From a bacterium (GTDB taxonomy: Bacteria > Patescibacteriota > UBA1384 > CAILIB01): a stretch of DNA of 64,000 nt. The notes below the pieces were generated by a model. The model had not been told where the DNA came from. It saw nothing but the letters and a program-made list of their open reading frames with translations, and did not search any database. Made by a program: the position numbers and the translations under genes. The stretch is from NCBI GenBank assembly GCA_037131105.1, contig JBAXRQ010000001.1:66039-130038 (forward strand), read 5' to 3'. Positions 1,436 through 46,055 of the stretch are shown here, in pieces. Numbering within the stretch: the first letter of the stretch is position 1; each line of letters starts with the position of its first letter.

Positions 1436-1774
1436 TTAGGCCTCGGCAGGTATTGTGGCGCTGTCGAGGAGTGCTCTCAGCTCCTCTGCTACTTGAGGAC
1501 CAAGGTTGAACTCGGAACGGTGCAAGATCCAGCGGATGATACCCAGGTCGATGCCGACGCCGGTGTGGTTTGGCTCCATGGCGTGGAAGAGGAGGACGGC
1601 ACTTGCCGCCTCGAAGCTGGTCATTGTGGTGGCGGTGGACTCAAAGCCATCGTCATACGTTATCAACTCGGCGTACCCACCTCCGAAACTGAAAGCGACC
1701 ATGTGGAGCTCCTTGTCCGGAGGTGTCTCTCCAAAAATAATCAGCGTACGTTCGGCTAAAGTACCTATCTTCAC
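1436..1774 (-). CDS. hypothetical protein (112 aa)
   Basis: GTG start preceded by AAAGGAG 7 nt upstream; the antisense + ORF lacks an RBS. Confidence 0.5.
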   Translation of the reverse strand: MKIGTLAERTLIIFGETPPDKELHMVAFSFGGGYAELITYDDGFESTATTMTSFEAASAVLLFHAMEPNHTGVGIDLGIIRWILHRSEFNLGPQVAEELRALLDSATIPAEA

Positions 1775-1876
1775 TTTGATCTCCTTTGTACGGCATCATG
1801 CCGGCCAGTGAGAGCTGGCAGTCGAAGAATACCATTTCTGCCTTAAAAAACAAGGCTCCTTTCAGATAGTTTCTTG

Positions 1877-1965
1877 AGCGTCAGGCAGTTGCTTATTGCT
1901 GCCTCCGCAGTACCGAATGGTTAGTTCAGTTTGAGGACAGTAGCAATAAGCAACTGCCTGACGCT
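1877..1965. promoter_or_regulatory. 24-bp perfect inverted repeat with a 41-nt loop, overlapping the stop codon of the antiporter gene
   Basis: agcgtcaggcagttgcttattgct at 1877-1900 and its exact reverse complement at 1942-1965. Confidence 0.6.
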
Positions 1966-3667
1966 AATCATAGTACAGCGCGTGGTTCTTGGCCTTTAGT
2001 AGCTTCAGCTCCTCGGCCTGCTGCTTGATGAAGCCGCGCAGCTCGTGATGCTCGTACTCGCTGATCAGGTCAGCTACATGCTCGCCGCCAAGCAAATGGG
2101 GCAGGATGACGTAATTGGCGCCCAGCTTGTAGTATTCCAGGGCGTCGTCGATGTGGTGGCTGGTGACGATAAGAATCGGCTTCTTGTGATGCGCCTTCAC
2201 CTCATTGATAAGGAAGGTGGTCTCCTGGCTGTGGGGGATGGTCGAGATGATCATCGAGGCCTTGTCGGCCTGGATTAGCTCCAGAATGTCCTCGTCCTGT
2301 ACGTCGCCGTACAGGCAGTCTACGCCCTGCTCCTTGAGCCGGCGGATGATGTCGGGATTGAAGTCCACTACCAGCACCCGATGGTGCAGAGCCCGCAGCT
2401 TGCTGAGGATGTGGTAGCCCATGCGGTGATAGCCGAAGATGATAATATGGTTCTCCAGCTCCTTCTCCTCGGCCAAATACAGGTGTTCGCGACCGTTGTG
2501 CTCAATGTGGCGCAGCGGCTTGCGGACTAGGTTATAGAGCCTCTCACGGTTATTGAGCAGGATGGTCGAGACAAAGATGGAAGCGATGGTGGTGAAGACG
2601 ATGCCGGTGGCGATATCGGAAGAGATCTGTCCCTGGGCCAGGCCGATGCTTACCAGTATCAAGGAGAACTCACTCATCTGTCCTAGGCTTAGCGAGGTGA
2701 GGAAGGCTGTGCGGTTCCGGAAGCCGCGCAGGTGCAGGGTAATAAAGGTCATCAGGGGCTTCACGATGACCGTGATGACCATCATGCCACCGATCAGGGC
2801 GTAGATGGAGGGACCGGGTATGGAAAGCTCGGTGCCGAAGCTTACAAAGAGCAAAATGACGAAGAAGTCCCTCAGCGACCTCAGGCGGCTTAGGATATCC
2901 AGGCTGTACGGCAATGCCGCCAGGCTGACGCCGGCCAGGAAGGCGCCGATCTCTACCGGGAAGTCATAATACGATCCGGCAATGGCCACTACGAAGCACC
3001 AGGCCAGACTGGCCAGGAAGAGCAGCTCACCTGACCTGGCAATCCTTCTGAACAGGCGTGGCAGTACGTACTGGGAAAGGAAGTAGAGGATGGCCAGTAG
3101 GGCCAGTGACTTGAGTAGCAGTAGCAAGAGCAGGCTACCGGTGCCCAGGCTGCTGGGGCTGCCGACGCCACCCAGCACTATCATCACAATGATGGCAGCC
3201 ACATCTTGGAACAGCAGCAATCCAACCGAGAGGCGGCCGTGCAGGGAGTTCATGTCCCGGGACTCGGAAAGGATCTTGATGACGATAACCGTAGAGGAGA
3301 AGGAGAGGGCAGCCCCCAGATAGATGCCGGTAAGCACCGGAAGACCAAGTACTGTGCTTAAAAGGTAGCCAGCCAGGAAGCTGCCACTGACCTGGGCGCT
3401 GCCGATCAGGAAGGTAGTGGCTAATTGGTGCTTGGTCTTGCTCCAGTCAAGTTCCAGTCCGACCAGGAAAAGCAGCAAGGCGATGCCGATCTGGCGAATG
3501 CCCTCGAACAGGTTCTGGTTCTGAATGAAGTGGGCACCGATGGGGCCGAGAATGACGCCGGCGATGATATAGCCCAGTATCGGAGGCTGCTTGAGTAGGC
3601 GGACCGCCAGAGCGCAAAACGTGGCGGCGGCCACCACTACGCCTATTTCGGTAAAGATCGTGTTCAT
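1964..3667 (-). CDS. monovalent cation:proton antiporter (CPA2/Kef-type) with C-terminal RCK/TrkA-N domain
   Basis: about 12 TM N-terminus, then IIIFGYHRMGYHILSKL...VVDFNPD Rossmann-type RCK domain. Confidence 0.85.
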   Translation of the reverse strand: MNTIFTEIGVVVAAATFCALAVRLLKQPPILGYIIAGVILGPIGAHFIQNQNLFEGIRQIGIALLLFLVGLELDWSKTKHQLATTFLIGSAQVSGSFLAGYLLSTVLGLPVLTGIYLGAALSFSSTVIVIKILSESRDMNSLHGRLSVGLLLFQDVAAIIVMIVLGGVGSPSSLGTGSLLLLLLLKSLALLAILYFLSQYVLPRLFRRIARSGELLFLASLAWCFVVAIAGSYYDFPVEIGAFLAGVSLAALPYSLDILSRLRSLRDFFVILLFVSFGTELSIPGPSIYALIGGMMVITVIVKPLMTFITLHLRGFRNRTAFLTSLSLGQMSEFSLILVSIGLAQGQISSDIATGIVFTTIASIFVSTILLNNRERLYNLVRKPLRHIEHNGREHLYLAEEKELENHIIIFGYHRMGYHILSKLRALHHRVLVVDFNPDIIRRLKEQGVDCLYGDVQDEDILELIQADKASMIISTIPHSQETTFLINEVKAHHKKPILIVTSHHIDDALEYYKLGANYVILPHLLGGEHVADLISEYEHHELRGFIKQQAEELKLLKAKNHALYYD

Positions 3668-3760
3668 GATGTCATTATAACCTGGCGAGGGGTCTCCGGT
3701 CTAATGAGTTGAGCCGTGCTTACCAGAGCCTATTATCCCTGTTGCCTCCTGCCCAACAGA

Positions 3761-3789
3761 TTGACAAAGTGGTCGGATTGGCCTATACT
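3761..3789 (+). promoter_or_regulatory. sigma70-like promoter (TTGACA-17-TATACT) with an A-rich leader of about 90 nt
   Basis: consensus hexamers upstream of the 3879 gene. Confidence 0.45.
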
Positions 3790-3878
3790 AATATAATTTC
3801 CAAAAAGGAAAAGACGAATACCAAAAAGAGGCGCGACAAAAGAGGGTTCAAAAGAAAAACAAAAACAAAAAGGTTCGC

Positions 3879-4433
3879 ATGACTTCCCAGTCTACCCGCA
3901 CAACCTATCGTCAGATCGCCGTCGCCTTCGTGGTATTCCGCTTGGTGGCGTTCTTCAGTGCCTCGCCTCTGGCTTTCGCCAAGGCAGGGGATACTGGCAC
4001 CGTGAGCGCTGCGGCTACCTCCGCCCGTCTTGAGCAATTCCCACCTCAGCAGTTTCTTGACCTCACCAATGCCGTCCGCCAGACCTACGGTGTCCTTCCT
4101 CTTACCCTGGATGACCAGCTGAATGCCGCCGCTCAGGCCAAGGCCCAAGATATGGTGGACAAGGGGTATTGGGCCCACTTCCGCCCCGGTGACAACAAGG
4201 CTCCTTGGGACTTCATTAGCGAGGCCGGTTATAGCTACCACGTGGCAGGTGAGAACCTGGCCAAGGGTTTTCGTAGTCCTGAGGGCATTACCCAGGCCTG
4301 GGTTGCTAGTCCTACTCATTTGGCTAACCTGGTTTCTCCTAAGTATAGTAATGTCGGATATGCCAGCGTGATGAGCACTGACAGTGATGGCTCTTCAGTC
4401 CTCCTGACTGTTGAAATGTTCGGCCACAAGTAA
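3879..4433 (+). CDS. CAP/SCP (PR-1-like, YkwD-type) domain secreted protein
   Basis: signal-anchor N-terminus; HVAGENLAKG and ASPTHLANL motifs typical of the CAP superfamily. Confidence 0.7.
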   Translation: MTSQSTRTTYRQIAVAFVVFRLVAFFSASPLAFAKAGDTGTVSAAATSARLEQFPPQQFLDLTNAVRQTYGVLPLTLDDQLNAAAQAKAQDMVDKGYWAHFRPGDNKAPWDFISEAGYSYHVAGENLAKGFRSPEGITQAWVASPTHLANLVSPKYSNVGYASVMSTDSDGSSVLLTVEMFGHK

Positions 4434-4448
4434 GAACGTGCGGGTTTT

Positions 4449-4931
4449 GTGGAGGTCGTGAAGTGCTATAATGGGCTTGTGAGCAGCCATCCTTACCGAT
4501 ATTTTTTCCGCCGCCTCTTACTCTGGCTGCGCGGTTCATTCAGCTTTCTCTGGCTGGCCCTGGTGGCCGGCTACTTGATGGTGCTGGCTGGGCACGCCGT
4601 CTACGCTAATTATCAGTCCCAACAGGAAACGGTTGACCTGCAGCGACAGCTTGTCAGGTCCCAGGAGCAGGAGGCCCGGTTGAATGCTCTTCTCATTTAC
4701 TATCGCACTGACTCGTTCAAGGAAAAGGTGCTGCGTAAGGATCTTCTTCTGAAATTGCCACAGGAACAGGTGTTTGCGCTTCCGGAGTCAAGCGGTAGTG
4801 CCAGTGAGCTTGATGAGGGGACGGTGGCGGAAGGTTTGGCCGATACGTCGTCTGTCTCTGGAAAAATAGAAAACGCCGGAGAATCCATATGGCGGCGGTG
4901 GGTGGATTACCTCTGGACCGGGCAGCGCTAA
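4449..4931 (+). CDS. septum formation initiator (FtsB/DivIC-like) protein
   Basis: single TM followed by coiled coil, then KEKVLRKDLLLKLPQEQVFALP; GTG start. Confidence 0.5.
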   Translation: MEVVKCYNGLVSSHPYRYFFRRLLLWLRGSFSFLWLALVAGYLMVLAGHAVYANYQSQQETVDLQRQLVRSQEQEARLNALLIYYRTDSFKEKVLRKDLLLKLPQEQVFALPESSGSASELDEGTVAEGLADTSSVSGKIENAGESIWRRWVDYLWTGQR

Positions 4932-4967
4932 ATCCCGGTTTTAACCTGTTGATATGTGGCTAGGGGA

Positions 4968-4996
4968 TTGACAAATCCCCCTTTTTGTGGTACATT
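4968..4996 (+). promoter_or_regulatory. sigma70-like promoter (TTGACA-17-TACATT)
   Basis: hexamers upstream of 5054; small hairpin ggggattgacaaatcccc overlaps the -35. Confidence 0.4.
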
Positions 4997-5053
4997 GGCT
5001 CAACTATCCACAGCCTGCGTGAGTGGGAGTGAGGTAGCGGAGGTGTAAGTATA

Positions 5054-5740
5054 ATGGTTAAGTTTTCGACGATTCTCGTTTTGCTTGCTGTTTTTTCCGG
5101 GATGGCCCATGCGGCAATCAACGTGGAGAGCGTTACTACCACAGCGGTGGTAAATACGTTAGCGGTTGATCAACTGGACGACTCGTCTAGCATCGCTAAA
5201 TACATCTTCCACGATGCTGCGGCCCACCAGGTCGCAACGGGCAGCTACTGTCTGCGAGTCAACTCGACGCTGGTCATCTCGACCACCGACTACAGTCAGT
5301 GTGCTACCCTCGACATGAGGGCCGACCTGAGTGGTCCCAGCGGGACGGTCTGCCTTACCAATAGGGTGGAGAAGACCGTCCAAAATAGGGATGTGGCGTC
5401 GGGCCAGTATCAATGCGCCCATCGCCAAGCGGTGAGGGCAGCAGCGTACTGCATGGTCGGTCTGATACGTAACCAGATCGAATCTTGGGAGCGTAACTGC
5501 CGCCACCCGTACATCACGGGGCCTTACTACTCTGACCAGGTCTGCACGACGCCGCGCCGGTATTGCGAGCCGCCGGTAGTCTACACGACGCCGCGCCGGT
5601 ATTGCGAGCCGCCAGTGGTCGTCATCGAGAGCCATTTCGGGGGTGGTAGAAGTCGTTTCCCCGTTAATATCATCATCCCTGTGCAGCCACAAGGCTGTCG
5701 GGATGACAGGAGGGGAGGTTATCGCCACTACGGGCGCTAA
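5054..5740 (+). CDS. secreted Cys-rich hypothetical protein with tandem TTPRRYCEPPVV repeat
   Basis: signal peptide MVKFSTILVLLAVFSGMAHA; 39-nt unit repeated twice. Confidence 0.6.
   Translation: MVKFSTILVLLAVFSGMAHAAINVESVTTTAVVNTLAVDQLDDSSSIAKYIFHDAAAHQVATGSYCLRVNSTLVISTTDYSQCATLDMRADLSGPSGTVCLTNRVEKTVQNRDVASGQYQCAHRQAVRAAAYCMVGLIRNQIESWERNCRHPYITGPYYSDQVCTTPRRYCEPPVVYTTPRRYCEPPVVVIESHFGGGRSRFPVNIIIPVQPQGCRDDRRGGYRHYGR
5546..5623 (+). repeat. 2 x 39-bp in-frame tandem repeat inside the CDS
   Basis: acgacgccgcgccggtattgcgagccgcc(g/a)gt(a/g)gtc(t/g)(a/t)c repeated. Confidence 0.8.
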
Positions 5741-5755
5741 TCTCAAAGAAGTACG

Positions 5756-5796
5756 AAAAGGGCGCGACCACATCAGTGGTCGCGCCCTCTTTCTTT
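5756..5796. terminator. bidirectional terminator between convergent genes
   Basis: gggcgcgaccac-atca-gtggtcgcgccc 12-bp stem, A-run upstream and T-run downstream. Confidence 0.8.
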
Positions 5797-5808
5797 GATT
5801 TCTAGGAA

Positions 5809-6258
5809 CTACTGGGTGGAAACGTTGGTGGAGTCGCTGCCGCCGACCGTGGTGCCGATACCGACGGCAAAACGGACGATGAAGAAGGCGGCTACGATGA
5901 CCACGATACCGATGACGGCGTTGATGATACCCTGGCGGGCTACCTTGGCTTTTTCTGCATTTCCGGCCGAGGTGATGTACTGGAAACCTGACCAGATCAG
6001 GTAGATCACAGCAAGGATACCGGCCAACAGCAATAGGATGTTGATGGCACGTCCAGCGATGGTGCCGATGCTGCCCTGTAGGTCATCAGCAGCTCCGGAG
6101 CCGTTGAAGTCAGTGCTTCCATTTATCTTGAGCTGGTAAGGGTCATTTCCTCCGACGCCGTTAGCGGCGAAGGCGCGACCGGCTCCGGCCATGGCGAGTG
6201 TAGCTCCGGTAGCGAACATTCCTGCGTACGTATAGGCCTTATAGGCTAATTTCTTCAT
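5809..6258 (-). CDS. TrbC/VirB2-like (T4SS-pilin-like) small membrane protein, paralogue 1
   Basis: signal peptide ...AFA, then TM-YITSAGNAEKAKVARQGIINA-TM module shared with three upstream paralogues. Confidence 0.6.
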   Translation of the reverse strand: MKKLAYKAYTYAGMFATGATLAMAGAGRAFAANGVGGNDPYQLKINGSTDFNGSGAADDLQGSIGTIAGRAINILLLLAGILAVIYLIWSGFQYITSAGNAEKAKVARQGIINAVIGIVVIVAAFFIVRFAVGIGTTVGGSDSTNVSTQ

Positions 6259-6343
6259 TTTCCTCCTTCTGGATTATGATTGTTACACTTATTGTAAGGT
6301 GGATCAGTTTTGCCTGTCAATCTCTGTATCGGCAAATAGACTC

Positions 6344-6775
6344 CTAAACCCTGCCTGCGAGGATGCGGGCAACGCCTATAATGGCTCCTAGTAAGGTATA
6401 AGCCGTTGCTATTACAACGACGGCGAGCAAGGAGTTAATGATGACCTGGCGGGCGCGCGTGACCGCCTCAGCGCTGCCATTGGCGGTGATATAGAGGATG
6501 CCGCCGTAAATAAGGCTTAGGACTGCCAGGCCGCCGAGAATGGGGAGGGCGACACGGTTGACCAGATGGTCCCAGACGAAATTTCCTACCCGGTTTACGT
6601 CGTCACCCTGCCCGTCAATAAAGCCGAACTGGGCTACGATAGCGGGGCTATTTGTACCGGCCGTACCCTGGCCGACGATATCGGGTATGGTGTTTCCGGC
6701 GTGGACAGCTGTCGGCGTGACGAAGGCCAGAGCCAGAGGAAGTAGTCGAAATGCGGTGAGTAGGCGGGCGATCAT
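6344..6775 (-). CDS. TrbC/VirB2-like small membrane protein, paralogue 2
   Basis: signal peptide; LIYGGILYITANGSAEAVTRARQVIINS-TM module. Confidence 0.6.
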   Translation of the reverse strand: MIARLLTAFRLLPLALAFVTPTAVHAGNTIPDIVGQGTAGTNSPAIVAQFGFIDGQGDDVNRVGNFVWDHLVNRVALPILGGLAVLSLIYGGILYITANGSAEAVTRARQVIINSLLAVVVIATAYTLLGAIIGVARILAGRV

Positions 6776-7548
6776 TGTACGACGCCGCTAAGGCCTGATG
6801 GCGGGGTGCCTGCATTGATATTTCCATCCACGGTGGCCTGGATAGATCCGTACAGAATAATTTTGGCAAAGATGGTGATAATGAGACCGGCATAGACAGC
6901 GATGAGGATGGTCTTGGCCTTTTTGACGTTTGCCTCACTGGCAAAGCCGGCGATGTACAGGAGTCCGGCATAGACGGTGAAGATGACCGCAAGAGCGCCA
7001 GCCGCCCAGTTTATAAGGGTAAGCCCCTTGTAAGAGAAAAATCTGAAGACGTCCAGACCCCAGTCTGCCGGAGGACAGGCGTTGGCGCCGGTGGCGTCGG
7101 GGCGAAGGTTATCAGGAATAAGGGGAAATACTGTATTGGCTGCCGGTTCCAGCACTTCAATAGTGCAGCCAGTGATGGGGGCTGGTGGATCTGCGATGGG
7201 AAGCGGTGTAGCCGGCTTGGTGTCTGGCTTGGTGTCCGGTTTAGTACCAGGTTTGGTACCCGGTTTAGTACCCGGCTTGGTGCCCGGCGGATCAGCTGCC
7301 AGAGTCCGTGAACTGGATACATCGCCCAATGTTCGTTCCTGAATAGACACAGTCGAATCCACTACGGCGGCCTGTGGCTTGGTGACAGTAAGGGTGGGGG
7401 CCAGAGCAAAAAGCAGTAGGCTTCCCCCGATGGTGACGGGAACGCCAATCAAGGCTGTCTTTGACTGCCAGCCAGTAGGTCCGCCGCTGCTCCTGGGAGC
7501 CGGCTTTGAGTGGGGGAAGGATTTTCCGAGGAAGGACTTCTTGGGCAT
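6772..7548 (-). CDS. TrbC/VirB2-like membrane protein, paralogue 3, with K-P-G-T repeat linker
   Basis: C-terminal VYAGLLYIAGFASEANVKKAKTILIAV-TM module; start placed at the ATG at 7548 (MPKKSFLGK..., signal-like) rather than the ORF-track 7593 start, which overlaps the upstream gene. Confidence 0.55.
   Translation of the reverse strand: MPKKSFLGKSFPHSKPAPRSSGGPTGWQSKTALIGVPVTIGGSLLLFALAPTLTVTKPQAAVVDSTVSIQERTLGDVSSSRTLAADPPGTKPGTKPGTKPGTKPDTKPDTKPATPLPIADPPAPITGCTIEVLEPAANTVFPLIPDNLRPDATGANACPPADWGLDVFRFFSYKGLTLINWAAGALAVIFTVYAGLLYIAGFASEANVKKAKTILIAVYAGLIITIFAKIILYGSIQATVDGNINAGTPPSGLSGVVQ
7213..7288 (-). repeat. 12-nt x 6 in-frame tandem repeat encoding (K/D)PGT
   Basis: ggcttggtgtct / ggtttagtacc(a/c) units on the + strand. 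Confidence 0.8.
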
Positions 7549-7549
7549 G

Positions 7550-7864
7550 CTACCTGAAGAGGTGGGTGATAAACCTGACGATGATGGCGGCAAAGACTAT
7601 AAGAAATATACCAAGAACCAGGTTCAATAAGTTCTTCTTGGCGGTAGTCCAGGCCTCAGGCTTGCCTGCCGAAGTGAGTAGAAGCCAGGCACAGAAGAGC
7701 AGGCACAGAAAGCCGAGCGGATAGGCGGCGAAGGTCAGCAGGTCGAGAGCCCGATTGAAGAGGTCGGGTACAGTTGTGACCGTTCCTGGTCCTGGAATGG
7801 TCAGAACGGCATCATCGGCATGGGCCGTCCCGATACCTAGCAGCAGTGTGAAGAATGGGTTCAT
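7550..7864 (-). CDS. TrbC/VirB2-like small membrane protein, paralogue 4
   Basis: signal peptide ...TAHA; LLLTSAGKPEAWTTAKKNLLNLV-TM module. Confidence 0.6.
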   Translation of the reverse strand: MNPFFTLLLGIGTAHADDAVLTIPGPGTVTTVPDLFNRALDLLTFAAYPLGFLCLLFCAWLLLTSAGKPEAWTTAKKNLLNLVLGIFLIVFAAIIVRFITHLFR

Positions 7865-7872
7865 GGCCAGAA

Positions 7873-9300
7873 CTAGGATGTGGGAACTGCGACTGGGTTC
7901 AGTAGGGTGTCTATCTGGTCGGCGGCAGTCTTGATGGCGTCAGCCGGGGAAATGCCGTTCTGGCTGACATTAACGATGGTTTGGTGGAAGGTTTGGTCAA
8001 ACTGGGTATGGCCTAGTTTGTAGGTGGTCTTGCCGGTGAGAATTTGCTTGCTCAGGAAGTCGCTGGAACTGTTCTGGTCCAAAGTAGCCGCAAATGGTGA
8101 CTTGAGCTTCAGTTCGCTGGCTAGGCCCTTGGCCATGGCTTGGTTGGTGTAAAGTTTCATAAAGGCAAAGGCGGCGGCTGGATTGTCGGCAGTCTTGGTG
8201 ACGGTCTCAAGAGAGAAACGGATCCAGTTTACTGGAGTCTGCGATACGCTTACCTGCGGCACAGGGCTAATTTGGGGACTGAAGTGAGGGTATTTTACTT
8301 TGAGTTTTTGTCCGAAGTCGGAGTACGCGACCACCATGGCAAGCTTTCCCTGGGCAAAGGCGTCGAGAGCGTCCGGCATGGAAGGGTTCCAGGAGTAGGT
8401 AGCCTTGCTAGGATCTGAGAACGAGGAGAAGAAGGAGAGGGCATTCTCACCTGGGCGTACCTGTCCTCCAGAAGGAGTGGTGGTGGGAACATGGAAAAGT
8501 GGGTTCTTGTGGTCGTCACTGACTATCTTGGCACCGTTCTGGCTGATCAGAAGTTCCAAAGTATCTTGGGCATTGGGAATGTTGTCGGCGGTACCGAGAG
8601 CGATGGCGGAGCGGGTGATGGTATTGCCGTTACGAATGGTAATGTACTTGACGTCATTGACTACATCGTCCCAGGTGGCCGGGGGATTATTCAATAGTAA
8701 GCGAACTGGTTGGTATAAGGCGTCGCTGAAATTGGTTCCGAGTGACTTGCGATAATCTTGTAGGGCTTGACTGAAGACGTCTTGGTTTACATAGAGCCTG
8801 AGAGTATCGACATTGGTAGGTAGGCCGTAGACATGGGTGCCGTCGGCACTGATGATCTGGCTGGAGATGCCGACAGGGTACAGTTTCTTCACTTCGTCCA
8901 CCGGCTTGGGGCTGCCGGTCACCTGGCTGAAGAAGTCGTCGGGGAGAGGCTGGACCTGGTCCTGGTAGTCGCCTATCCAGTCGTTGGGGATGCTCCAGAT
9001 ATCCGGCCCCTGCCTTCCGGCGAGCGACTTCAGGGAGGCAAATTCGTAGTTATCGATAGTTCGGTTCTGGTAGCTGACCTTGGTAGCTGTGTGGTCCTTC
9101 TGGAACTGAGTAATGGTGTCACGGAAGGAGTCGACTGCCTGGCCTACCCGCCAGATACGGATCAGGTTGGTATGGGGGGTGCTAGTACCGGTAGTGCTGC
9201 AGCCGGTCGCCACAAGGCCGAAAATGCCGATGAGGCCGACAGTGGCTCCCTTGGAGAGCTTCAGCCTCAGTTTTTTTGATGGTGAGTGGTGCTGCCCCAT
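7873..9300 (-). CDS. lipoprotein, extracellular solute-binding protein (ABC family-1-like), orphan
   Basis: lipobox LVATGC; PDIWSIPNDWIGDY and LYVNQDVF resemble sugar-binding proteins; no permease or ATPase adjacent. Confidence 0.55.
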   Translation of the reverse strand: MGQHHSPSKKLRLKLSKGATVGLIGIFGLVATGCSTTGTSTPHTNLIRIWRVGQAVDSFRDTITQFQKDHTATKVSYQNRTIDNYEFASLKSLAGRQGPDIWSIPNDWIGDYQDQVQPLPDDFFSQVTGSPKPVDEVKKLYPVGISSQIISADGTHVYGLPTNVDTLRLYVNQDVFSQALQDYRKSLGTNFSDALYQPVRLLLNNPPATWDDVVNDVKYITIRNGNTITRSAIALGTADNIPNAQDTLELLISQNGAKIVSDDHKNPLFHVPTTTPSGGQVRPGENALSFFSSFSDPSKATYSWNPSMPDALDAFAQGKLAMVVAYSDFGQKLKVKYPHFSPQISPVPQVSVSQTPVNWIRFSLETVTKTADNPAAAFAFMKLYTNQAMAKGLASELKLKSPFAATLDQNSSSDFLSKQILTGKTTYKLGHTQFDQTFHQTIVNVSQNGISPADAIKTAADQIDTLLNPVAVPTS

Positions 9301-9312
9301 AGCACGAGATGA

Positions 9313-10194
9313 TTATGAGATGGTTTCCTGAAGGTACTTTCTAAAGTCGGCACCGAGGTCCTCGCGCTCGAGGGCGAACTCAACAGTGGCCTTCAGGTAC
9401 TCAAGCTTATTGCCGCAGTCGAAGAACTTGACTCCCTTGAGCTCCTTGGCGAAAGTAGGGCGCTCCTGAAGAAGGGCGTTGAGGGCGTCAACCAGCCAGA
9501 TCTCGCCGCCTTTGCCGGCAGTCTGCTGTTCGAGCTTGGTAAAGATGTCCGGGGTAAGTACGCAAGAGCTGATGAAGGCATAGGGGGAGATCTTGTTGTC
9601 TACGCCTGGCTTTTCTACGACCTCGGAGAGTTCATACACTCCGTTTCCCTTGTCTTCCTTCACCTTGACATAGCCGTACTTGTCGTAGTCGCTGTCGGCG
9701 GTTCGTTCCATTACCGAGAGAACTGGTCCCTGGTATTGCTCGTAGGTGGCGATCAGCTGCTCGATCTTAGAGGGGGTTCCCTTGTAGACCTCATCCCCCC
9801 AGACCATGACGAAGGGCTCGTCGCCTACCACTTCCTTAGCCTGGAGAATGGCATGGCCGTTGCCCAGCTGCTCCTTCTGGCGGACGTAGACGAACTTGGC
9901 GATATCAGAGATGTCGCGGATCATCTTCTTCTGGGCCAGCTTACCTGATTTCTCAAGCAGGTATTCGAGCTCCAGATTGTAATCGAAGTAGTCCTCGATG
10001 GCCCGCTTACTGTAGCCGGTGATAAGAATGACCTCGGTGATGCCAGCCGCTACCGCCTCTTCGACGATATACTGGATGACCGGACGGTCAACGATGGGCA
10101 GCATCTCCTTGGGTATGGACTTGGTGAAGGGGAGAAAGCGGGTGCCGTAGCCGGCTACCGGGATGACGATCTTGCGAATTTTGGACATTTCCAA
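9313..10194 (-). CDS. galU: UTP--glucose-1-phosphate uridylyltransferase
   Basis: KIVIPVAGYGTRFLPFTKSIPKEMLPIVDRPVIQYIVEE. Confidence 0.9.
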   Translation of the reverse strand: MEMSKIRKIVIPVAGYGTRFLPFTKSIPKEMLPIVDRPVIQYIVEEAVAAGITEVILITGYSKRAIEDYFDYNLELEYLLEKSGKLAQKKMIRDISDIAKFVYVRQKEQLGNGHAILQAKEVVGDEPFVMVWGDEVYKGTPSKIEQLIATYEQYQGPVLSVMERTADSDYDKYGYVKVKEDKGNGVYELSEVVEKPGVDNKISPYAFISSCVLTPDIFTKLEQQTAGKGGEIWLVDALNALLQERPTFAKELKGVKFFDCGNKLEYLKATVEFALEREDLGADFRKYLQETIS

Positions 10195-10251: not shown

Positions 10252-10647
10252 CTAACCGATTTCGACGGCGATGGTCTTAGTCCTAGCCTTGGCGGCCTTG
10301 GGAACGGTGACAGTAAGGATGCCATTGACCAGACGGGCTGTGGCCTTGTCGGAGTCTACGGCGACAGGTAGAGCATAGACGCGGGAGAAGGAGCCCCAGT
10401 AGCATTCCTGGACCATGTAGCCGTCTACCTGCTCGCTCTGGTTGTCATGGCGCTCACCTCGGATGCTGACCTGCTCGTCGGTGATGGTGACGTCAAGGTC
10501 TTCCTGGCGTACGCCGGCGATAGGGGCTTTGAGGATGATTTCGGACGGGGTCTGGTAGACGTCGATAGCCAGCTGGCCTTCAAGCTCTTCCATCCAGTCG
10601 GCCGGATCCACTATGGCCTGCATTGTCTCTTCTGGTTTTTTGCTCAT
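10252..10647 (-). CDS. Hsp20/alpha-crystallin small heat-shock protein
   Basis: alpha-crystallin domain; GILTVTVPK C-terminus. Confidence 0.85.
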   Translation of the reverse strand: MSKKPEETMQAIVDPADWMEELEGQLAIDVYQTPSEIILKAPIAGVRQEDLDVTITDEQVSIRGERHDNQSEQVDGYMVQECYWGSFSRVYALPVAVDSDKATARLVNGILTVTVPKAAKARTKTIAVEIG

Positions 10648-10695: not shown

Positions 10696-12003
10696 ATGCC
10701 CCAGTTTCCAGTGGCTTGCAAGGGTGGCCCGGACCTTGGAAATGCGGTAATGTACAGAGGTATGGCATATCTCTCTACACTCATTGCCTGGGCTCGCCGC
10801 CGCCCTGCCTCTGCCTTGCTCGCTGTCTTGGGAGTGGTCGCATTTGCAATTGGTATCTGGGCCCGGCTATATCACCTGGGAACTCCTAGTTCGCAGGTGT
10901 TTGACGAGGTCTATTTCCCGGTTTTTGCCAATGATTATCTGACCCACGTCAACTTCTTCGACGTGCATCCGCCGCTGGGTAAGTTCATCATCGCCCTAGG
11001 GGTCTGGGTATTCGGCAATGTGCCGTTTGGTTGGCGGATCATGCCGGCAGTGTTTGGCTTGGGTCTACCGGTGCTAGGCGGCTTCACTTGGTATTGGTGG
11101 CGCAAGGAGAGGCTGGGCGCCCTGCTGTTCGCAGTCTTTCTGGCTATTGAGACGATACTCATTGTCTATTCTCGCACCGGGCTGATGGACGGCATCCAGA
11201 CCTTCTTCATACTGGCTGTGTTTGCGGCGGCGGTGCGGATCAAGCGGCCCGAGCAGGTGGTCTGGGTGGCCTTGCTGCTGGGCATGGCTTGTGGGGTCAA
11301 GTGGATTTCACTGGGAGTCATCGTGCCGGTTCTCTATGTGATGTGGCGGCGGAAGTTGTTACTTCCGTTTCTGTTGAGTGTGCCGGTGGTTTTGGCGGCG
11401 TACCTGGTAGTCGTGGTGGTCGGCCAGGCACTTACGGGCTCTACCGATCCCTGGCAGGGTATGGTGCTATGGCACCAACAGGCCTGGGGCTATCAGCTGG
11501 GACTCACCGCCACCCATCCGTGGAGCTCGAAGTGGTGGAGCTGGCCGCTGATGCTGAGGCCGGTACTCTTTTATTACCAGTCCGATGACCAGGGTCGCAT
11601 AATGATGATTACCGCGCTAGGCAATCCCATTCTCTGGTGGAGTAGTACTGCAGCGGTAGTAGTTAGCCTTTTCGTGGTAATCAATGCCTGGTGGCAGGCC
11701 GGGTGGAGGAAGATGCTTGAGCATCCGCTTGTACCGTTGCTGCTCGGCTGGTCGGCACTATTTCTGCCGTTTATCCCGGTACACCGGGTCATGTTCATTT
11801 ATCATTACCTGCCGTCATATGCGTTTGCCATGCTGATGCTGACCGATCTGCTGGGCCGGATCTGGAAGCGCTCGCCCTGGCCGGTGGTGCTGTTTGTGGC
11901 AGTGGTGCTGGGGATCTCAATCTACTACCTGCCCTTTGCCATGGGTCTGCCGCTTAGTCCTGAAGGAAACCAGCAGCATCTCTGGCTGCAGTCGTGGCTC
12001 TAG
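10696..12003 (+). CDS. dolichyl/polyprenyl-phosphate-mannose--protein O-mannosyltransferase (GT39/PMT family)
   Basis: DEVYFPVFANDYL...FFDVHPPLGK signature loop, polytopic; true start may be M19 or M23. Confidence 0.75.
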   Translation: MPQFPVACKGGPDLGNAVMYRGMAYLSTLIAWARRRPASALLAVLGVVAFAIGIWARLYHLGTPSSQVFDEVYFPVFANDYLTHVNFFDVHPPLGKFIIALGVWVFGNVPFGWRIMPAVFGLGLPVLGGFTWYWWRKERLGALLFAVFLAIETILIVYSRTGLMDGIQTFFILAVFAAAVRIKRPEQVVWVALLLGMACGVKWISLGVIVPVLYVMWRRKLLLPFLLSVPVVLAAYLVVVVVGQALTGSTDPWQGMVLWHQQAWGYQLGLTATHPWSSKWWSWPLMLRPVLFYYQSDDQGRIMMITALGNPILWWSSTAAVVVSLFVVINAWWQAGWRKMLEHPLVPLLLGWSALFLPFIPVHRVMFIYHYLPSYAFAMLMLTDLLGRIWKRSPWPVVLFVAVVLGISIYYLPFAMGLPLSPEGNQQHLWLQSWL

Positions 12004-12662
12004 CCCACTGGGCGAGTCGCTGGGAGACGAGATTGCTGGACCTCTTCTTTCCTCGGAAGTGTGTTGAGTGTGGTATGGCAGGTGCGTGGCTTTGTGCTGG
12101 GTGTGAGGGTAAGTACCTGGTGGGGGCGGTGCCAGAGGTGCTGCCTTCGGAGGTGCTGCCGGCCGTTGTGTGTCTGCTGGACTTCGGCGCGGGTCCGGTC
12201 CGGGAGCTTATTCATTCCTTGAAATATGACGGGATCCGCGAGGCGGCGGGTGTTTTGGTGGGGTTGGCGGGGAAGTGTGTCAGTCTTGATGAGGCGCGAG
12301 GGTATTACGGGCCTGAGGCTATCTTAGTGCCGGTACCAACTAGCAAGGCAAAGCTAAAAATGCGGGGATACAACCAGGCACAGCTGTTGGCTGAGGAGAT
12401 TGCGGCGTGGCTGGGAGTGGAAGTAAAGGAGGGCTTAGTCGCGCATAAAAGAAAGCAGTCCCAGGTGGGCAAGGGACTGGCGGAACGGAGTCATTTGGAA
12501 GGCCGCTTTAGTGTGGTAAAGGATGGACTGCCCAAGGACCGGCCATTGGTGCTGGTGGATGACGTGTATACGACGGGGAGCACGCTCAGGGCCTGTGCGG
12601 AGGCGCTAAAGAGGGACGGGTATCGGGTGGCGGGTGGGTTGGTGCTGGCGCACAAACGCTAA
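11994..12662 (+). CDS. comFC: ComF family protein (double zinc ribbon + phosphoribosyltransferase domain)
   Basis: CxxC...CxxC N-terminus; VLVDDVYTTGSTLRACAEAL PRTase motif. Confidence 0.7.
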   Translation: MALAHWASRWETRLLDLFFPRKCVECGMAGAWLCAGCEGKYLVGAVPEVLPSEVLPAVVCLLDFGAGPVRELIHSLKYDGIREAAGVLVGLAGKCVSLDEARGYYGPEAILVPVPTSKAKLKMRGYNQAQLLAEEIAAWLGVEVKEGLVAHKRKQSQVGKGLAERSHLEGRFSVVKDGLPKDRPLVLVDDVYTTGSTLRACAEALKRDGYRVAGGLVLAHKR

Positions 12663-19199: not shown

Positions 19200-21059
19200 T
19201 TATTCAAGGCCGGGAGTCAGCTGTTTCATACGTTCCTGAAAGCGTTTGTTTTGCTGTGCTTGCTGATATAGGTTTGGAAATCTTTTGAGATGGTCAAGGG
19301 CGAGTATCTGCAGTTCGTCGTCGTCAAACGTTACGCAGCTAAGGGATATCTCGCCAAGGTCATCCTTTCGATACAGGCTGTCAAATACTGCTCTCATGTC
19401 GATGCCTAGTTCAGGGTACTCTTTCTGGAGACTGAAGAGAGTCCCGGTCTTGCTGGAGGTAAATATTCTCTTAGTTGTGTTGGGGATCTCAGCGGCTAAA
19501 TAGGGGATAAGTGTTGGAGGTAGGTTCTGGGTGGTGCCGGTGGTTAGGATGAAGTCAAGAACATTACGGGCAAAGACGGCTTGTTGGGCCTCAACTGTGG
19601 AGTGGCCGCCGGCATCCTTCCGGGAAGCGCTTTCTATTCTTTGTGCGTAGTAGGCCATGATGGCATGGATCGCCTCGGGGTCTGGGTTGCGTCTTAGCTG
19701 GTCTTCGTAGGCTTGAACTATGGGTTCCATGCGAGTCGGGGTATAGTCCAGATCGTACATTTCGCCGGTTTTGAGGTTCTCTTTTGCCCAGGTTGCATCA
19801 ACGACCGTGACTTCGCCGGAGCCGTCCTTTGTGACGGTGAGAAAGCTGTTCCAGGCATGGGATGTGTCGAGGTTTTCCTTTCCGGGCGCATAGTCGTGGC
19901 CGCTGCTGTATATACAGTGGGTGTTGCGAAGCTGGTTGAGCTCTTTCTGGCTTGCCTTTAGTGCGTTGAAGACATCCAGTACGGCTGCGGCAAAGTTTCG
20001 ACAGACCCCGTTTCCTTTCCAATCAGGATCGCTACGATTGATTAGTCCTTCCTCCAATAGCTCGATGGTGGAGCTGGTGTCGGCGGACGTAGGGGCATAC
20101 CGTTCTGTTATCTCCCCTTTCTCATCTCTCTTCACCCGCTCTGATTTATAGTCGGCGTAGTATTTTCTGAGCTTGACTATCAGAGAGGTCGATAGCTCGG
20201 CCGCTTGCCGGGGGCTCAACTCGCGCAGGTTGGTGATCCCGATCTGGCGGGCAAGTTCGGGCTCTTCCTGGAGCAAATAGCCTTGCACAAAGCGGTAGAG
20301 CTCTCGTTCCCACCCCTCTCGTTTCATGGTCTCACTGTGGGTGGCCACTCTCGTAAGCTCACGCTCGTACTCGCCTCTTACACCCCCGATCTGGGAGTGA
20401 GCGTAAGCGTTATCAGAGGTGTAAAACTTATCCCCGAGCTCCTTGCTGATGGGGTATTCCTGGTCAGTAGGCGAAGGCTGAGGGTCGTAGCCGTTGAAAT
20501 CCACGAACGAGACGGTAGTGTTTGGGTCGGGCTTGAAGCGGAGCAGGGGGCTGTGACTGAGCTGTTCCTCGTAGTGGGCCCGTTGGTCGATGTAGCAGTG
20601 TCTGGCTTCTTCCCAGGTCGCACAACGTGAGCTCCCGATGACCAGTTCACCACTTTCCAGGTCAACTAGCTGGGGGTAGACTACGGCATACGTTCCATCC
20701 GGCTTTTTCTCAATGCTGCAGTTCACCGTATAGGTCGCGGCCAGCTCTTTCTGGTCGTAATATTCGCGCATGAGGGTTCGTTTCTGCATCCAGTCACCTG
20801 CTCCTTTCTGGATGTCGGCTTGTGCCTGCATGTCGATCTGAGAGTCAGCTGCGGCACGCTCGGCACTTTCGCGGTCAAAAAACCCTTCGGTGGCGGTACC
20901 GATTATTCTTCCGTTGAAATCGGTGAGCCCTGGGAGAATTGCCTCGAAGGCGCCGCTTGCAGTCTCTCGCACTTCATACAATGCGGAAAGACCCCGCTGT
21001 TCCGGCCTAGGTGTCTCGGCGTCTTTAACCGGTGGTGCTTCGTGCTCGTAACTCATCAC
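19200..21059 (-). CDS. large cytoplasmic protein with central transglutaminase-like cysteine-protease core
   Basis: GNGVCRNFAAAVLDVF (Cys), about 39 aa later SHAWNSFL (His), about 17 aa later VVDATW (Asp): spacing typical of the transglutaminase-like superfamily; about 340-aa N-terminal and 200-aa C-terminal regions unrecognised; no signal peptide. Confidence 0.6.
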   Translation of the reverse strand: MMSYEHEAPPVKDAETPRPEQRGLSALYEVRETASGAFEAILPGLTDFNGRIIGTATEGFFDRESAERAAADSQIDMQAQADIQKGAGDWMQKRTLMREYYDQKELAATYTVNCSIEKKPDGTYAVVYPQLVDLESGELVIGSSRCATWEEARHCYIDQRAHYEEQLSHSPLLRFKPDPNTTVSFVDFNGYDPQPSPTDQEYPISKELGDKFYTSDNAYAHSQIGGVRGEYERELTRVATHSETMKREGWERELYRFVQGYLLQEEPELARQIGITNLRELSPRQAAELSTSLIVKLRKYYADYKSERVKRDEKGEITERYAPTSADTSSTIELLEEGLINRSDPDWKGNGVCRNFAAAVLDVFNALKASQKELNQLRNTHCIYSSGHDYAPGKENLDTSHAWNSFLTVTKDGSGEVTVVDATWAKENLKTGEMYDLDYTPTRMEPIVQAYEDQLRRNPDPEAIHAIMAYYAQRIESASRKDAGGHSTVEAQQAVFARNVLDFILTTGTTQNLPPTLIPYLAAEIPNTTKRIFTSSKTGTLFSLQKEYPELGIDMRAVFDSLYRKDDLGEISLSCVTFDDDELQILALDHLKRFPNLYQQAQQNKRFQERMKQLTPGLE

Positions 21060-21763: not shown

Positions 21764-22363
21764 ATGGGTATCTACTCGGTAAAGCCAAAGTTTCAGAAGA
21801 TTCTTACCCCGGTGAAAGACCTGCTGGTGAGGGGAAAGGTGCATCCGACCACCATCAATATCATCGGGCTGGCGATCTCGCTCCTGGCGGGCATAGCGCT
21901 TTATTACTCAGGACAGTATGCCCTGCTGCTCTGGTACATCCCGGTGGCCGGCTTTGTGCGTACTGCCTGTAACGCCTTGGATGGCCTGGTTTCAAGAGAG
22001 CTGGGGGAGGCCTCGGCCTTTGGGGAGGTGCTCAATGAGTTCATTGACCGCATATCCGACTCGGCTATCTTTCTCGGCGTCACGTTCTCGGCATTAGCTG
22101 ATATGCGACTGGGGATAGTTACTCTGGTAGTTATCCTGCTGAACAGCTATCTCAGCATCGTCAGCAAGGCAGCTGGCGGTAGTAGGCAGTACGGAGGCAT
22201 CATGGGTAAGGCCGATAGGATGATCTACCTCGGTATCGCTGCGGTGGCTGTAGCTGTGAGCGGTTATACGGAGATCTGGAATTATTTCCTTGTCTTTATT
22301 CTAGCCGGCACTATGATTACCATGTACCAGCGCTTCATGGTCACCCGCAAGGAGCTTGCCTAG
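21764..22363 (+). CDS. CDP-alcohol phosphatidyltransferase family protein
   Basis: DG(x2)AR(x8)G(x3)D(x3)D motif: NALDGLVSRELGEASAFGEVLNEFIDRISD. Confidence 0.75.
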   Translation: MGIYSVKPKFQKILTPVKDLLVRGKVHPTTINIIGLAISLLAGIALYYSGQYALLLWYIPVAGFVRTACNALDGLVSRELGEASAFGEVLNEFIDRISDSAIFLGVTFSALADMRLGIVTLVVILLNSYLSIVSKAAGGSRQYGGIMGKADRMIYLGIAAVAVAVSGYTEIWNYFLVFILAGTMITMYQRFMVTRKELA

Positions 22364-23315
22364 TATGGAGGGCCTCTTTGCGAATCCGCTGGCAAATCCC
22401 ATTTTCATCCCCCTGATGACCAGGATGTTGGTGCTCTTTTCGGCCGGCTTCCTGATCCTGTTGGCACTGAAGAAGGGTAATTATGCTGCCCTGATGGGCT
22501 CGAACCTCGGCCAGCGTTACGTTGGCTGGCTCATTCTTTTTCCGATCTACGTGGTAGGCACCTTTTTCGGTGCTCTTTTTGGTCATATCGTACTCTTTGC
22601 TTTTATGTACCTGGCCTTGGCCGAGATAGTCAGGGTCTCGGGACTTTCGCGGGCGTACCACGTCGCCTTGGTGGTTCTCTCGATCTATAGCCTGTTCATC
22701 GCTGCCTTGCATCCTGAGTATTTCTTCTCCCTCCCCTTGGTGTACTTCATTGTCCTCACCCTGGTCGCTATCCGGTCCAATGACGCTGAAAAGGGTCTGC
22801 AGCAGGCGGCCGTCTCCCTATTCGTGGCCATCTGGATTATCTTCAGCATGAGTCATATCGACCTACTGGCCCACCTGAACAACCATCTTGATCAGACCAG
22901 TAGCTTGGTCTTCCTGGTGATCTTCGCGGTGGCCCTGGCCGATATCGGAGGATATATCTTCGGCAAGACGTTTGAGAAGCTGCATTTCTTTGATGCCTAC
23001 AAAATCGCTCCCAACCTTAGTCCAAATAAGACGTATGCGGGGACGCTGGGCTATATGATTGGCGCCGGCATCGGTATCGCCTTCCTCTACTTCGCGGTGG
23101 GAGGGTACCTGGCCCCTCCGCTCTGGGTTGTTGTAGCTGTTCTGATTGGCTTGTTCGCTCCGGTCGGGGGGATGACTCACTCGCTTTTCAAACGTTTTTA
23201 CGGTGTGAAGGACAGCGGTAGCCTGATTCCCGGACACGGCGGTATCCTGGACCGGGTAGACAGCATGGTCCGCGTAGTGGTCATCCTCTATTATTTCTTC
23301 CGACTATTCCTCTAG
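22356..23315 (+). CDS. cdsA: phosphatidate cytidylyltransferase
   Basis: SPNKTYAG...KRFYGVKDSGSLIPGHGGILDRVDS signature. Confidence 0.85.
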   Translation: MPSMEGLFANPLANPIFIPLMTRMLVLFSAGFLILLALKKGNYAALMGSNLGQRYVGWLILFPIYVVGTFFGALFGHIVLFAFMYLALAEIVRVSGLSRAYHVALVVLSIYSLFIAALHPEYFFSLPLVYFIVLTLVAIRSNDAEKGLQQAAVSLFVAIWIIFSMSHIDLLAHLNNHLDQTSSLVFLVIFAVALADIGGYIFGKTFEKLHFFDAYKIAPNLSPNKTYAGTLGYMIGAGIGIAFLYFAVGGYLAPPLWVVVAVLIGLFAPVGGMTHSLFKRFYGVKDSGSLIPGHGGILDRVDSMVRVVVILYYFFRLFL

Positions 23316-23642
23316 GAGGGTCACGGTGGCGATAGCATAGTCGCAGTCATGGGAGATGCTGCAGTCTAGTGAGAGAATGGTTTTTTGGTGGGCTTCGGGG
23401 GATATCTTAAGGGACGGTTTGCCGTTTTCAGCATAGATGACCTCGATATCCAGCCAGCTGCCAGCTTTGAGCCCGAACGCCTTGAGAGCGGCCTCCTTCA
23501 GGGCGAAGACTCCTGCCGCATGCAGGGGATCGCGGCGGCGCAGCTCCCCGGGATGAAATATGCGGAAACTCGAGGCTTCGCTTTCTATAAGGGGAAGGAC
23601 ACGATCTATCTTCACGATGTCGCAGCCGGTAGAAATAGTCAT
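23304..23642 (-). CDS. acpS: holo-[acyl-carrier-protein] synthase (4'-phosphopantetheinyl transferase)
   Basis: start at internal M (MTISTGCDIVKI), AGVFALKEAALKA, SISHDCDYAIATV; ORF-track start at 23753 adds 37 non-conserved residues. Confidence 0.75.
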   Translation of the reverse strand: MTISTGCDIVKIDRVLPLIESEASSFRIFHPGELRRRDPLHAAGVFALKEAALKAFGLKAGSWLDIEVIYAENGKPSLKISPEAHQKTILSLDCSISHDCDYAIATVTLLEE

Positions 23643-32239: not shown

Positions 32240-32323
32240 GGCGGAGGGTAAAGGAATCGAACCTTCAACATTGCTGTTGGTCCGGTTTTCAAGACCGGTT
32301 ACGAGCCACTCGTACTACCCTCC
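32239..32323 (-). tRNA. tRNA-Ser (anticodon TGA), type II, CCA encoded
   Basis: manual cloverleaf; anticodon stem CCGGT/ACCGG, loop CTTGAAA, variable arm CAACA-GCAA-TGTTG. Confidence 0.85.
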
Positions 32324-32361
32324 ACGTGCCGTCCCAGTCCCAGCACTATACCAATTCCAGG

Positions 32362-45875: not shown

Positions 45876-45994
45876 GAGTCCTTTTCCGGGAGGGTTGGCT
45901 AGGACGTGAGCGGTATCCTCTGTGCGCGTCCCGCACCAGCGAAGGTCTTCCTCGTAGTGCTCCCGATTGAGTTTCAGGCAAAGTTGTTTGTTGT

Positions 45995-46024
45995 TTGCAT
46001 CCCCTTGCCGTTCTCCTCTATACT
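45995..46024 (+). promoter_or_regulatory. sigma70-like promoter TTGCAT-18-TATACT
   Basis: upstream of the 46056 start, which has an AAAGGGGGG SD. Confidence 0.45.
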
Positions 46025-46055
46025 GAACCTAGAACGTTTGAGCCTAAAGGGGGGA

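Follow-up and report, generated by a model that had tools for sequence, protein, structure and literature searches.

The stretch of DNA examined here, referred to below as the window, comprises 64,000 nucleotides (nt) of a contig from a member of the Patescibacteriota (positions 66,039 to 130,038 of contig JBAXRQ010000001.1, assembly GCA_037131105.1). Near its left end the minus strand carries a compact cassette in which the gene for a lipoprotein resembling a sugar solute-binding protein (SBP) is followed by four small genes, designated pilins A to D, whose products resemble the pilins of type IV secretion systems (T4SSs). All genes of the cassette share this orientation, as does a conserved gene for an HSP20 small heat-shock protein (10252-10647; Pfam HSP20, 71.5 bits) immediately ahead of it. 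The cassette opens with the gene for a GalU-like UTP--glucose-1-phosphate uridylyltransferase (9313-10194), and after a further 12 nt comes the SBP gene (7873-9300), which encodes a divergent, sugar-type SBP_bac_1 lipoprotein of 475 amino acids (aa). Pilin A (7550-7864; 104 aa), with which the array begins, starts 8 nt past the SBP stop codon, and a single nucleotide separates its stop from the start of pilin B (6772-7548), which is 258 aa long when read from an ATG, the longest open reading frame (ORF) beginning at a TTG and encoding 273 aa. Pilin B shares 4 nt with pilin C (6344-6775; 143 aa), the start of C falling on the stop codon of B, and a gap of 85 nt then precedes pilin D (5809-6258; 149 aa), the candidate major pilin. 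The independent gene calls of ENA and Logan yield the same five products, SBP and pilins A to D, from the same DNA, and the coordinates and lengths given for these ORFs in a preliminary description of the window are borne out.

That description also treated the SBP and pilin genes as one operon. The genes are tightly packed, but they do not form one simple operon, as the gap between pilins C and D contains a conserved promoter-like site of its own. This site (6291-6320, minus strand) is of the sigma-70 type, TTGACA-N18-TACAAT, matches the consensus at 11 of 12 positions and is followed by the ribosome-binding site (RBS) AAGGAGGA (6261-6268, minus strand); pilin D alone of the four possesses such a site. 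Beyond pilin D a Rho-independent terminator hairpin (5756-5791, minus strand), consisting of a 16-bp stem and a T run, closes the unit; transcription at the other end is likely to begin ahead of the SBP gene, with either the GalU-like or the HSP20 gene. These signals recur in related loci, here numbered with the prefix L, which derive from Patescibacteria metagenome-assembled genomes labelled, for example, Saccharibacteria, Berkelbacteria, Uhrbacteria or 'Patescibacteria group', with L020 and L025 labelled Gammaproteobacteria. The C-D gaps of L004, L005, L007, L009, L010 and L012 contain the same -35 and -10 hexamers, 17-18 nt apart, together with an AGGAGG RBS, and in the first five of these loci the D gene is also followed, as in the window, by a hairpin and T run. 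Because pilin D combines its own promoter-like site, a strong RBS and a terminator with higher conservation than the other pilins (see below), it is, as judged from these sequence features, the likely major subunit. The terminator is bidirectional, being shared with a convergent gene (5054-5740, plus strand) that encodes a secreted, Cys-rich protein of 228 aa with a duplicated TTPRRYCEPPVV segment. This protein has no Pfam or NCBIfam match, and in the relatives its slot is occupied by unrelated, uncharacterised ORFs of 268-477 aa.

Sequence comparisons support the assignment of the four small proteins to the VirB2-like superfamily of T4SS pilins. The gathering score of the Pfam family PF18895 (T4SS_pilin; 26.6 bits) was exceeded by pilins D (43.0 bits), A (35.8 bits) and C (27.5 bits), while pilin B, at 21.3 bits, falls just below it and taken alone would not qualify (E-values of the four, from strongest to weakest, 4.8e-11, 8.8e-09, 3.4e-06 and 2.9e-04). 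None of the window pilins reached the gathering score of PF04956 (TrbC/VirB2; 27.9 bits), the best being A with 20.7 bits and D with 14 bits. A local hidden Markov model (HMM) of the family, built from 56 database homologues and searched against the 855 stop-to-stop ORFs of the window, picked out exactly the four pilins (E-values from 1e-53 to 4e-08), the next-best ORF having an E-value of 1.7; it is this model that recovers pilin B (E-value 4e-08), one homologue of which (P0061) carries PF18895. The resemblance is therefore far beyond chance. Among the array members of the related loci PF18895 is matched by 91 of 92, and 22 of the 92 also match PF04956 (E-values of at most 0.01, best 5.8e-08), the latter constituting the best bridge to canonical VirB2; orthologues of pilin A carry a precomputed PF04956 match in L004 and a weak one in L029. 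In NCBIfam the nearest model is that of the Mbov_0395 pilin-like conjugal transfer protein (NF045849), which remains sub-threshold for pilins D, C and A (34.5, 21 and 18.9 bits against a cut-off of 40 bits). Pairwise local identity between the window pilins is 25-34%, C and D (34%) being the closest pair, and four consecutive pilin genes with such low mutual identity constitute a VirB2 array as defined for Patescibacteria (PMC12102498), for which two or more VirB2-like genes must be in tandem or no more than one gene apart.

The topology of the proteins is in accord with this assignment. In a Kyte-Doolittle scan each displays an N-terminal hydrophobic segment and two C-terminal hydrophobic helices, the transmembrane (TM) segments lying, for example, at residues 45-63 and 82-100 of pilin A and 71-89 and 108-126 of pilin C. 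The intervening loop contains the motif QYITSAGNAEKAK, LYITANGSAEAVT or LLLTSAGKPEAWTTAK in three pilins and the more divergent LYIAGFASEANVKKAK in pilin B, the pattern common to the alignment of the four being Y-I-T-x-x-G-N/S-x-E, looser in B. In an AlphaFold2 (AF2) model pilin D is predicted to consist of a signal helix, a disordered region (residues 26-55) and a confident hairpin of two helices (56-96 and 101-143; predicted local distance difference test score, pLDDT, ~90), which is consistent with pilin topology. The model of pilin B, derived from an alignment of six sequences, is poor (mean pLDDT 49.8), with a hairpin at residues 163-243 (helices 163-199 and 205-243; pLDDT ~70-77) and the remainder disordered. 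Searches for structural relatives were uninformative: a profile of the pilin alignment retrieved only spurious TM matches to G-protein-coupled receptors and channels among PDB sequences, and Foldseek found nothing in the PDB at an E-value of 0.001 or less for the pilin D model, the conjugation pilus of A. pernix (8dfu) ranking fourth with an E-value of 1.6. Such null results are to be expected since short hydrophobic helical hairpins discriminate poorly. The preliminary description had proposed TrbC/VirB2-like pilins with an N-terminal segment and a shared two-TM and loop module; the hydropathy scan and alignment confirm the module in all four proteins, and the HMM searches place three of the four in PF18895, with PF04956 remaining below threshold.

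It could be argued that these small, Sec-exported proteins are not structural subunits but effectors or toxin components released through a T4SS, in a manner analogous to the subunits of pertussis toxin. Their size and N-terminal signal peptides accord with such a role, and arrays of this type were indeed originally proposed, for TM7x, to encode Sec-secreted proteins (McLean 2020, PMC7427843). All four, however, contain two strongly hydrophobic helices predicted to form a membrane hairpin and match pilin HMMs, and the arrays have since been re-interpreted in the literature as encoding VirB2-like pilins. This explanation fits the data poorly, and we regard it as most improbable.

Pilin B departs from the other three in its layout, an N-terminal anchor being followed by a long Pro/Thr/Lys-rich linker, a Cys-containing region and the pilin hairpin. 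The linker, PGTKPGTKPGTKPGTKPDTKPDTKP, described previously as six copies of (K/D)PGT and here as (G/D)TKP x6, is real in that its coding sequence is a tandem repeat (7208-7288; 12-bp unit, 6.8 copies), as shown by Tandem Repeats Finder and translation. In the alignment of B-type proteins an FLGK motif ahead of the first TM segment, an FP dipeptide, and a Cys and a Trp ahead of the hairpin are invariant, which suggests a recognition or processing signal together with a folded or disulfide-bonded element. Outside the window, ~1 kb beyond its left edge, a 489-aa protein (16178-17647 of L001) combines an N-terminal PF18895 module with a CarboxypepD_reg-like beta-sandwich, as if the hairpin anchored or displayed an adhesin-like domain.

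The relationships between the arrays of different genomes provide insights into how the four pilins may differ in function. The order A-B-C-D recurs in L004, L005, L007 and L029, whose SBPs are ~50% identical, and proteins in the same position match each other in blastp with 47-126 bits (A), 89-247 bits (B) and 103-137 bits (D), compared with 15-45 bits for matches across positions. Mean identity between orthologues decreases from HSP20 (73%) and GalU (64%) through the SBP and pilin D (both 50%) to pilins C (40%), B (38.5%) and A (38%), so that D is the best conserved of the pilins. In these comparisons each position forms an orthologue group of its own, conserved across relatives, and the paralogues are old rather than the products of recent duplication. 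A further D-like paralogue (P0006, WCO52_00295), 55% identical, is encoded ~20 genes away on the NCBI contig, and solitary additional pilin genes, from none to three, are found near the arrays of relatives; in the window, the 757-bp gap between the PK and Na/H exchanger genes, the site of such a gene in relatives, contained no decayed pilin gene.

These data bear on the view that the array is a store of interchangeable major pilins, serving antigenic or host-range variation as proposed for the VirB2 copies of Bartonella and Anaplasma and suggested for Patescibacteria (PMC12102498). The low pairwise identity of the window pilins, in line with the published mean of 25%, and the fluctuating number of solitary pilin genes are the features that such a store might display. 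In contrast with this view, each position constitutes its own orthologue group across genomes with SBPs ~50% identical, the architectures differ stably (a short form of 104 aa as against forms of 186-258 aa with a linker and Cys region), a dedicated promoter-like site precedes D alone, and the genes are not flanked by recombination-type repeats, the sole tandem repeat being the in-frame linker of pilin B. As the paralogues are old and individually retained, distinct structural roles fit better than interchangeable variants; the variation hypothesis, like that of secreted toxins, fits poorly, and we consider it improbable.

The SBP that heads the array was initially regarded as an orphan. It is a clear member of PF01547 (65.6 bits; gathering score, 26) and carries a lipobox, ...GLVATGC, after which comes a stretch rich in Ser and Thr. 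The Cys of the lipobox (Cys34) does not vary among four orthologues. The PDB relatives of the SBP are weak but are all SBPs of sugar ATP-binding cassette (ABC) transporters (best 4qrz, 3.5e-10). No ABC permease or ATPase (BPD_transp, ABC_tran) was evident among the ~55 window ORFs scanned with Pfam, and in the fully annotated related loci no ABC permease adjoins the SBP, which is followed there by pilin genes. To assess this linkage, GTDB representative genomes were queried with an alignment of the four SBP orthologues, no pilin information being included. The search returned 18 loci with SBP identities of 25-60%, in 16 of which between 1 and 11 PF18895-like genes lie directly after the SBP gene on the same strand. 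The two exceptions are L020, in which the array occupies the opposite strand at a distance of 2.4 kb, and L026, a truncated locus. Pilin genes also directly follow the SBP in L005, L007, L029, L030 and L031. The same order is found in L030 and L031, which are independent protein-database matches with SBPs of 27-29% identity, and in both GalU and SBP overlap through an ATGA sequence; in L030 the SBP and first pilin genes also overlap by 4 nt, and stop/start overlaps of 4 or 8 nt occur within the cassette in relatives. The order GalU-SBP-pilin is not present in L032, whose SBP is an outlier of 22% identity, and a contig scan queried with the SBP alone gave no match.

Of 22 loci that could be assessed, ~20 have a GalU-like gene as the immediate upstream neighbour of the SBP gene. 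The window protein is an NTP_transferase by Pfam and matches the NCBIfam model TIGR01099 (galU) over its full length with 296 bits, just under the cut-off of 326.8. HSP20 is a less constant partner, located upstream of GalU-SBP in ~11 related loci, or about half. On the evidence of these genomes the linkage of GalU, SBP and array is widely conserved, being present in ~22 loci and down to 25-29% SBP identity, and the SBP, far from being incidental, is a conserved and often translationally coupled partner of pilin arrays. Two of the related arrays display additional features: the first pilin after the SBP in L031 (11406-12335) carries a PG_binding_1 domain, and L025 contains 12 pilin genes, with a type IV pilus set (PilB, N_methyl pilins and PilX_N; 1462-8444) directly upstream of GalU.

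Taken together, these observations lead us to favour, as on balance probable, a model based on the 'VirB2 array' of Patescibacteria, in which four ancient and non-interchangeable T4SS-pilin paralogues comprise a major subunit, D, and minor subunits, A to C, with the SBP as accessory. Each pilin would be exported by Sec and remain in the cytoplasmic membrane, folded into a hairpin of two helices with its ends directed outward and its basic loop in the cytoplasm. Pilin D, expressed from its own consensus promoter with a strong RBS and terminator, would be the abundant major subunit, while A, B and C, made at lower and coupled levels from the upstream GalU-SBP-A-B-C transcript, would be minor or specialised subunits acting as initiator, adaptor or tip; the long flexible extension of pilin B is probably extracellular. 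To polymerise into a surface filament or a channel that contacts a host cell, the pilins would need a VirB4/VirB6-type machine, as is typical of the phylum, encoded elsewhere in the genome. The co-translated SBP, produced at a constant ratio to A, B and C and anchored on the outward side of the membrane, would be dedicated to the array rather than serve as the receptor of a transporter. Its ligand is most plausibly a glycan or glycolipid, either derived from the host or dependent on UDP-glucose supplied through the adjacent GalU, and the SBP would then contribute to the assembly, anchoring or triggering of the filament.

Several considerations weigh against this model. The preliminary description remarked that VirB4, VirB6 and VirD4 genes are lacking near the array, and this holds for the window and for the 15.6 kb to its left: no VirB4, VirB6, VirB3/PrgI or VirD4 is encoded from 15.6 kb to the left to 58 kb to the right of the array, so that the hallmark of a T4SS locus, VirB4 together with VirB6/VirB3-type channel genes, was not found among the ~55 window ORFs and the left flank. 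Likewise, none of these genes was evident within ~10 kb of the array in the ~20 related loci examined; because it is missing near the array in both the window and the relatives, the assembly machine that the model assumes is unobserved. Homology to canonical VirB2 is weak, a five-member profile of Agrobacterium-type VirB2 aligning by hhalign over 47 columns with a probability of 10% (E-value 0.0032), albeit with the hairpin in register, and there is no direct evidence of filament formation for any PF18895 protein. The role of the SBP is the weakest step of the model since SBPs have no tested precedent in pilus biogenesis. A component with T4SS affinities does occur in one related locus, L016, where a 1,243-aa fusion of a VirD4-like (type IV coupling protein-like) ATPase with a Replic_Relax relaxase is encoded together with a large serine recombinase (2119-8257) just upstream of the HSP20-GalU-SBP-pilin cassette; this region probably represents a mobile element that has integrated there and does not belong to the cassette.

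The principal rival explanation is that the locus operates independently of any T4SS, the SBP and the four two-TM hairpins forming an envelope complex of their own that acts as a sensor or as a conduit for uptake or extraction. The pilin-like hairpins would here replace the permeases of an ABC transporter, and the cargo would be a host sugar, a glycolipid or a lipid head-group. An SBP gene followed by translationally coupled genes for small membrane proteins is the layout of a transporter operon, the window contains no cognate permease or ATPase, GalU is co-conserved, and the SBP-coupled arrays are in no case beside virB4 in the ~20 loci, whereas a pilin lies near virB4 in 58% of the published assemblies that have both genes. 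It should be emphasized, however, that the family is demonstrably located in a T4SS cluster, and essential, in Southlakia, which has no PF01547 SBP; that cleavable-looking signal peptides and variable extracellular N-termini are typical of pilins; that four two-TM hairpins without an energising component would be unlike any known importer; and that the flanks were covered for only ~10 kb, which leaves room for a distant T4SS. We therefore regard a T4SS-independent device as unlikely. Distinctly unlikely is its more specific form, in which the GalU-SBP-pilin cassette would be a self-contained envelope apparatus of environmental Patescibacteria, with the SBP capturing the host sugar, glycolipid or lipid head-group and the VirB2-like hairpins, which co-assemble with lipid in canonical pili, providing a conduit or scaffold. 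If true, such an apparatus would represent a new route of nutrient or lipid acquisition in bacteria that are unable to make their own lipids.

The array model has consequences that can be explored experimentally. A ligand-binding lipoprotein and a UDP-glucose enzyme would offer two handles on the role of the T4SS and its arrays, namely the ligand of the SBP and its contact with the pilins. From positional orthology combined with a dedicated promoter it can be predicted, in a form open to test, that one subunit is major and the other three are minor, in place of the vaguer notion of antigenic variation. As the cassette is absent from the cultivated Southlakia ML1, it marks biology that lies beyond current experimental systems.

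The remainder of the window is occupied largely by housekeeping and envelope functions, the ~55 ORFs including, by Pfam, PK, a Na/H exchanger, DivIC, MurJ, FtsH, LepA, DnaK/GrpE and ComEC, as well as lipid-salvage enzymes and glycosyltransferases. Divergent from the cassette, and retained in the closer relatives, are plus-strand genes for a protein O-mannosyltransferase (PMT; 10696-12003) and a ComF/GntX-like protein (11994-12662), the latter type of gene also adjoining the arrays of TM7x and Southlakia. The Ser/Thr-rich stretches of the SBP, of pilin B and of the C-terminal tail of pilin D could, from their composition, be targets of O-glycosylation. The idea that the NTP-transferase of the cassette is a GDP-mannose enzyme feeding the neighbouring PMT was dropped, its best match being GalU. 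The ComEC competence channel (39544-40896) lies beside a metallo-beta-lactamase domain gene (38615-39535), and next to this block is a gene (41060-41815) whose product resembles a type IV pilin and carries a methylation motif at its N-terminus. A link between the array and type IV pili was considered, as PilB is encoded near the array in L016, L017 and L025, and was rejected as the association is not conserved and PilB is not adjacent in the window. A block with the appearance of lipid salvage (21764-26101) encodes a CDP-alcohol phosphatidyltransferase, CdsA and an 820-aa AMP-binding/PP-binding/acyltransferase fusion. Three large ORFs have no Pfam match (19200-21059, minus strand, 619 aa; 45906-47765, plus strand, 619 aa; 32362-33942, minus strand, 526 aa), the second having ~13 predicted TM helices. 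The tRNA gene at 32242-32324 (minus strand) is scored by Rfam as tRNA-Sec (50.8 bits; gathering score 47) and by ARAGORN as tRNA-Ser(tga), and is probably a Ser tRNA with a long variable arm rather than evidence of selenocysteine use. Towards the right end, a 395-aa surface protein (62547-63734, minus strand) has a signal peptide and a weak cohesin-like domain, which a long linker rich in Pro, Thr and Ala connects to a single TM helix and a charged tail of coiled-coil type.

Precedents for an SBP with links to T4SSs are provided by ChvE of Agrobacterium, which acts with VirA, and by enterococcal PrgZ, both SBP-fold ligand sensors linked to T4SS-related signalling. To our knowledge, these belong to SBP families other than that of the window protein, and neither is translationally coupled to pilin genes or known to contact pilins. 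With respect to the pilins, the window proteins share with canonical TrbC/VirB2 (VirB2 of A. tumefaciens, TrbC of RP4) a leader peptide, two hydrophobic helices and a short basic loop. In contrast to these, they fall under the PF04956 gathering score, their host is monoderm and their genes lie outside a virB-like operon; unlike canonical Gram-negative T4SSs, no VirB5 homologue was recognised in the window. One major subunit accompanied by one or more minor subunits of the VirB5 type is the accepted design of canonical T4SS pili. The closest NCBIfam neighbour, Mbov_0395, is similarly a small two-TM protein of a monoderm T4SS; it is, however, encoded by a single-copy gene inside an integrative and conjugative element of Mycoplasma, whereas the window contains a chromosomal array whose members score below the Mbov_0395 cut-off.

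Within the Patescibacteria, tandem arrays of VirB2-like genes are already published, so that the arrangement in the window is not unprecedented. A 'novel array of small Sec-secreted proteins' was found beside VirB4/VirB6 in Saccharibacteria, including TM7x (McLean 2020, PMC7427843), and the six-gene pilin series SEML1_0014-0019 in the T4SS cluster of Ca. Southlakia epibionticum ML1 is essential (Wang 2023, PMC10633639). The role of the essential T4SS and pilin arrays in Patescibacteria has been described as completely unknown (PMC11665869). The arrays of ML1, whose genome is of the Saccharibacteria type, and of the window both consist of tandem PF18895 genes that are divergent in sequence but alike in structure, and both have Hsp20 and ComF-like neighbours, the Hsp20 gene that abuts the ML1 pilin array being essential. 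The six ML1 pilins, however, abut VirB6-, PrgI- and VirB4-like genes near dnaA, and ML1 has no PF01547 SBP in its genome table and encodes GalU elsewhere, whereas the four window pilins are preceded by GalU and an SBP lipoprotein, with no T4SS gene within -16/+58 kb.

A survey of the phylum identified VirB4 in 2,417 of 3,035 Patescibacteria assemblies and 441 VirB2 arrays in 383 assemblies, the arrays comprising 2-11 genes and identity averaging 25% (Quinonero-Coronel 2025, PMC12102498). A pilin lies near virB4 in 1,135 of the 1,948 assemblies that have both (58%) and away from it in ~40% (PMC12102498), and arrays remote from virB4 are thus not exceptional. Neither McLean 2020 nor Quinonero-Coronel 2025 refers to an SBP, GalU or HSP20 partner, the linkage of GalU, SBP and array is likewise absent from the account of Wang 2023, and no description of a GalU-SBP-coupled, virB4-unlinked and position-conserved four-pilin cassette was found in the literature searched. 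The window array resembles the published VirB2 arrays in containing at least two tandem PF18895/PF04956 genes with ~25% mutual identity, the pilins of which are not always near virB4. It differs from them in that, whereas the published copies have been read as variation, those of the window are position-specific orthologues, the last of which has a dedicated promoter-like site.

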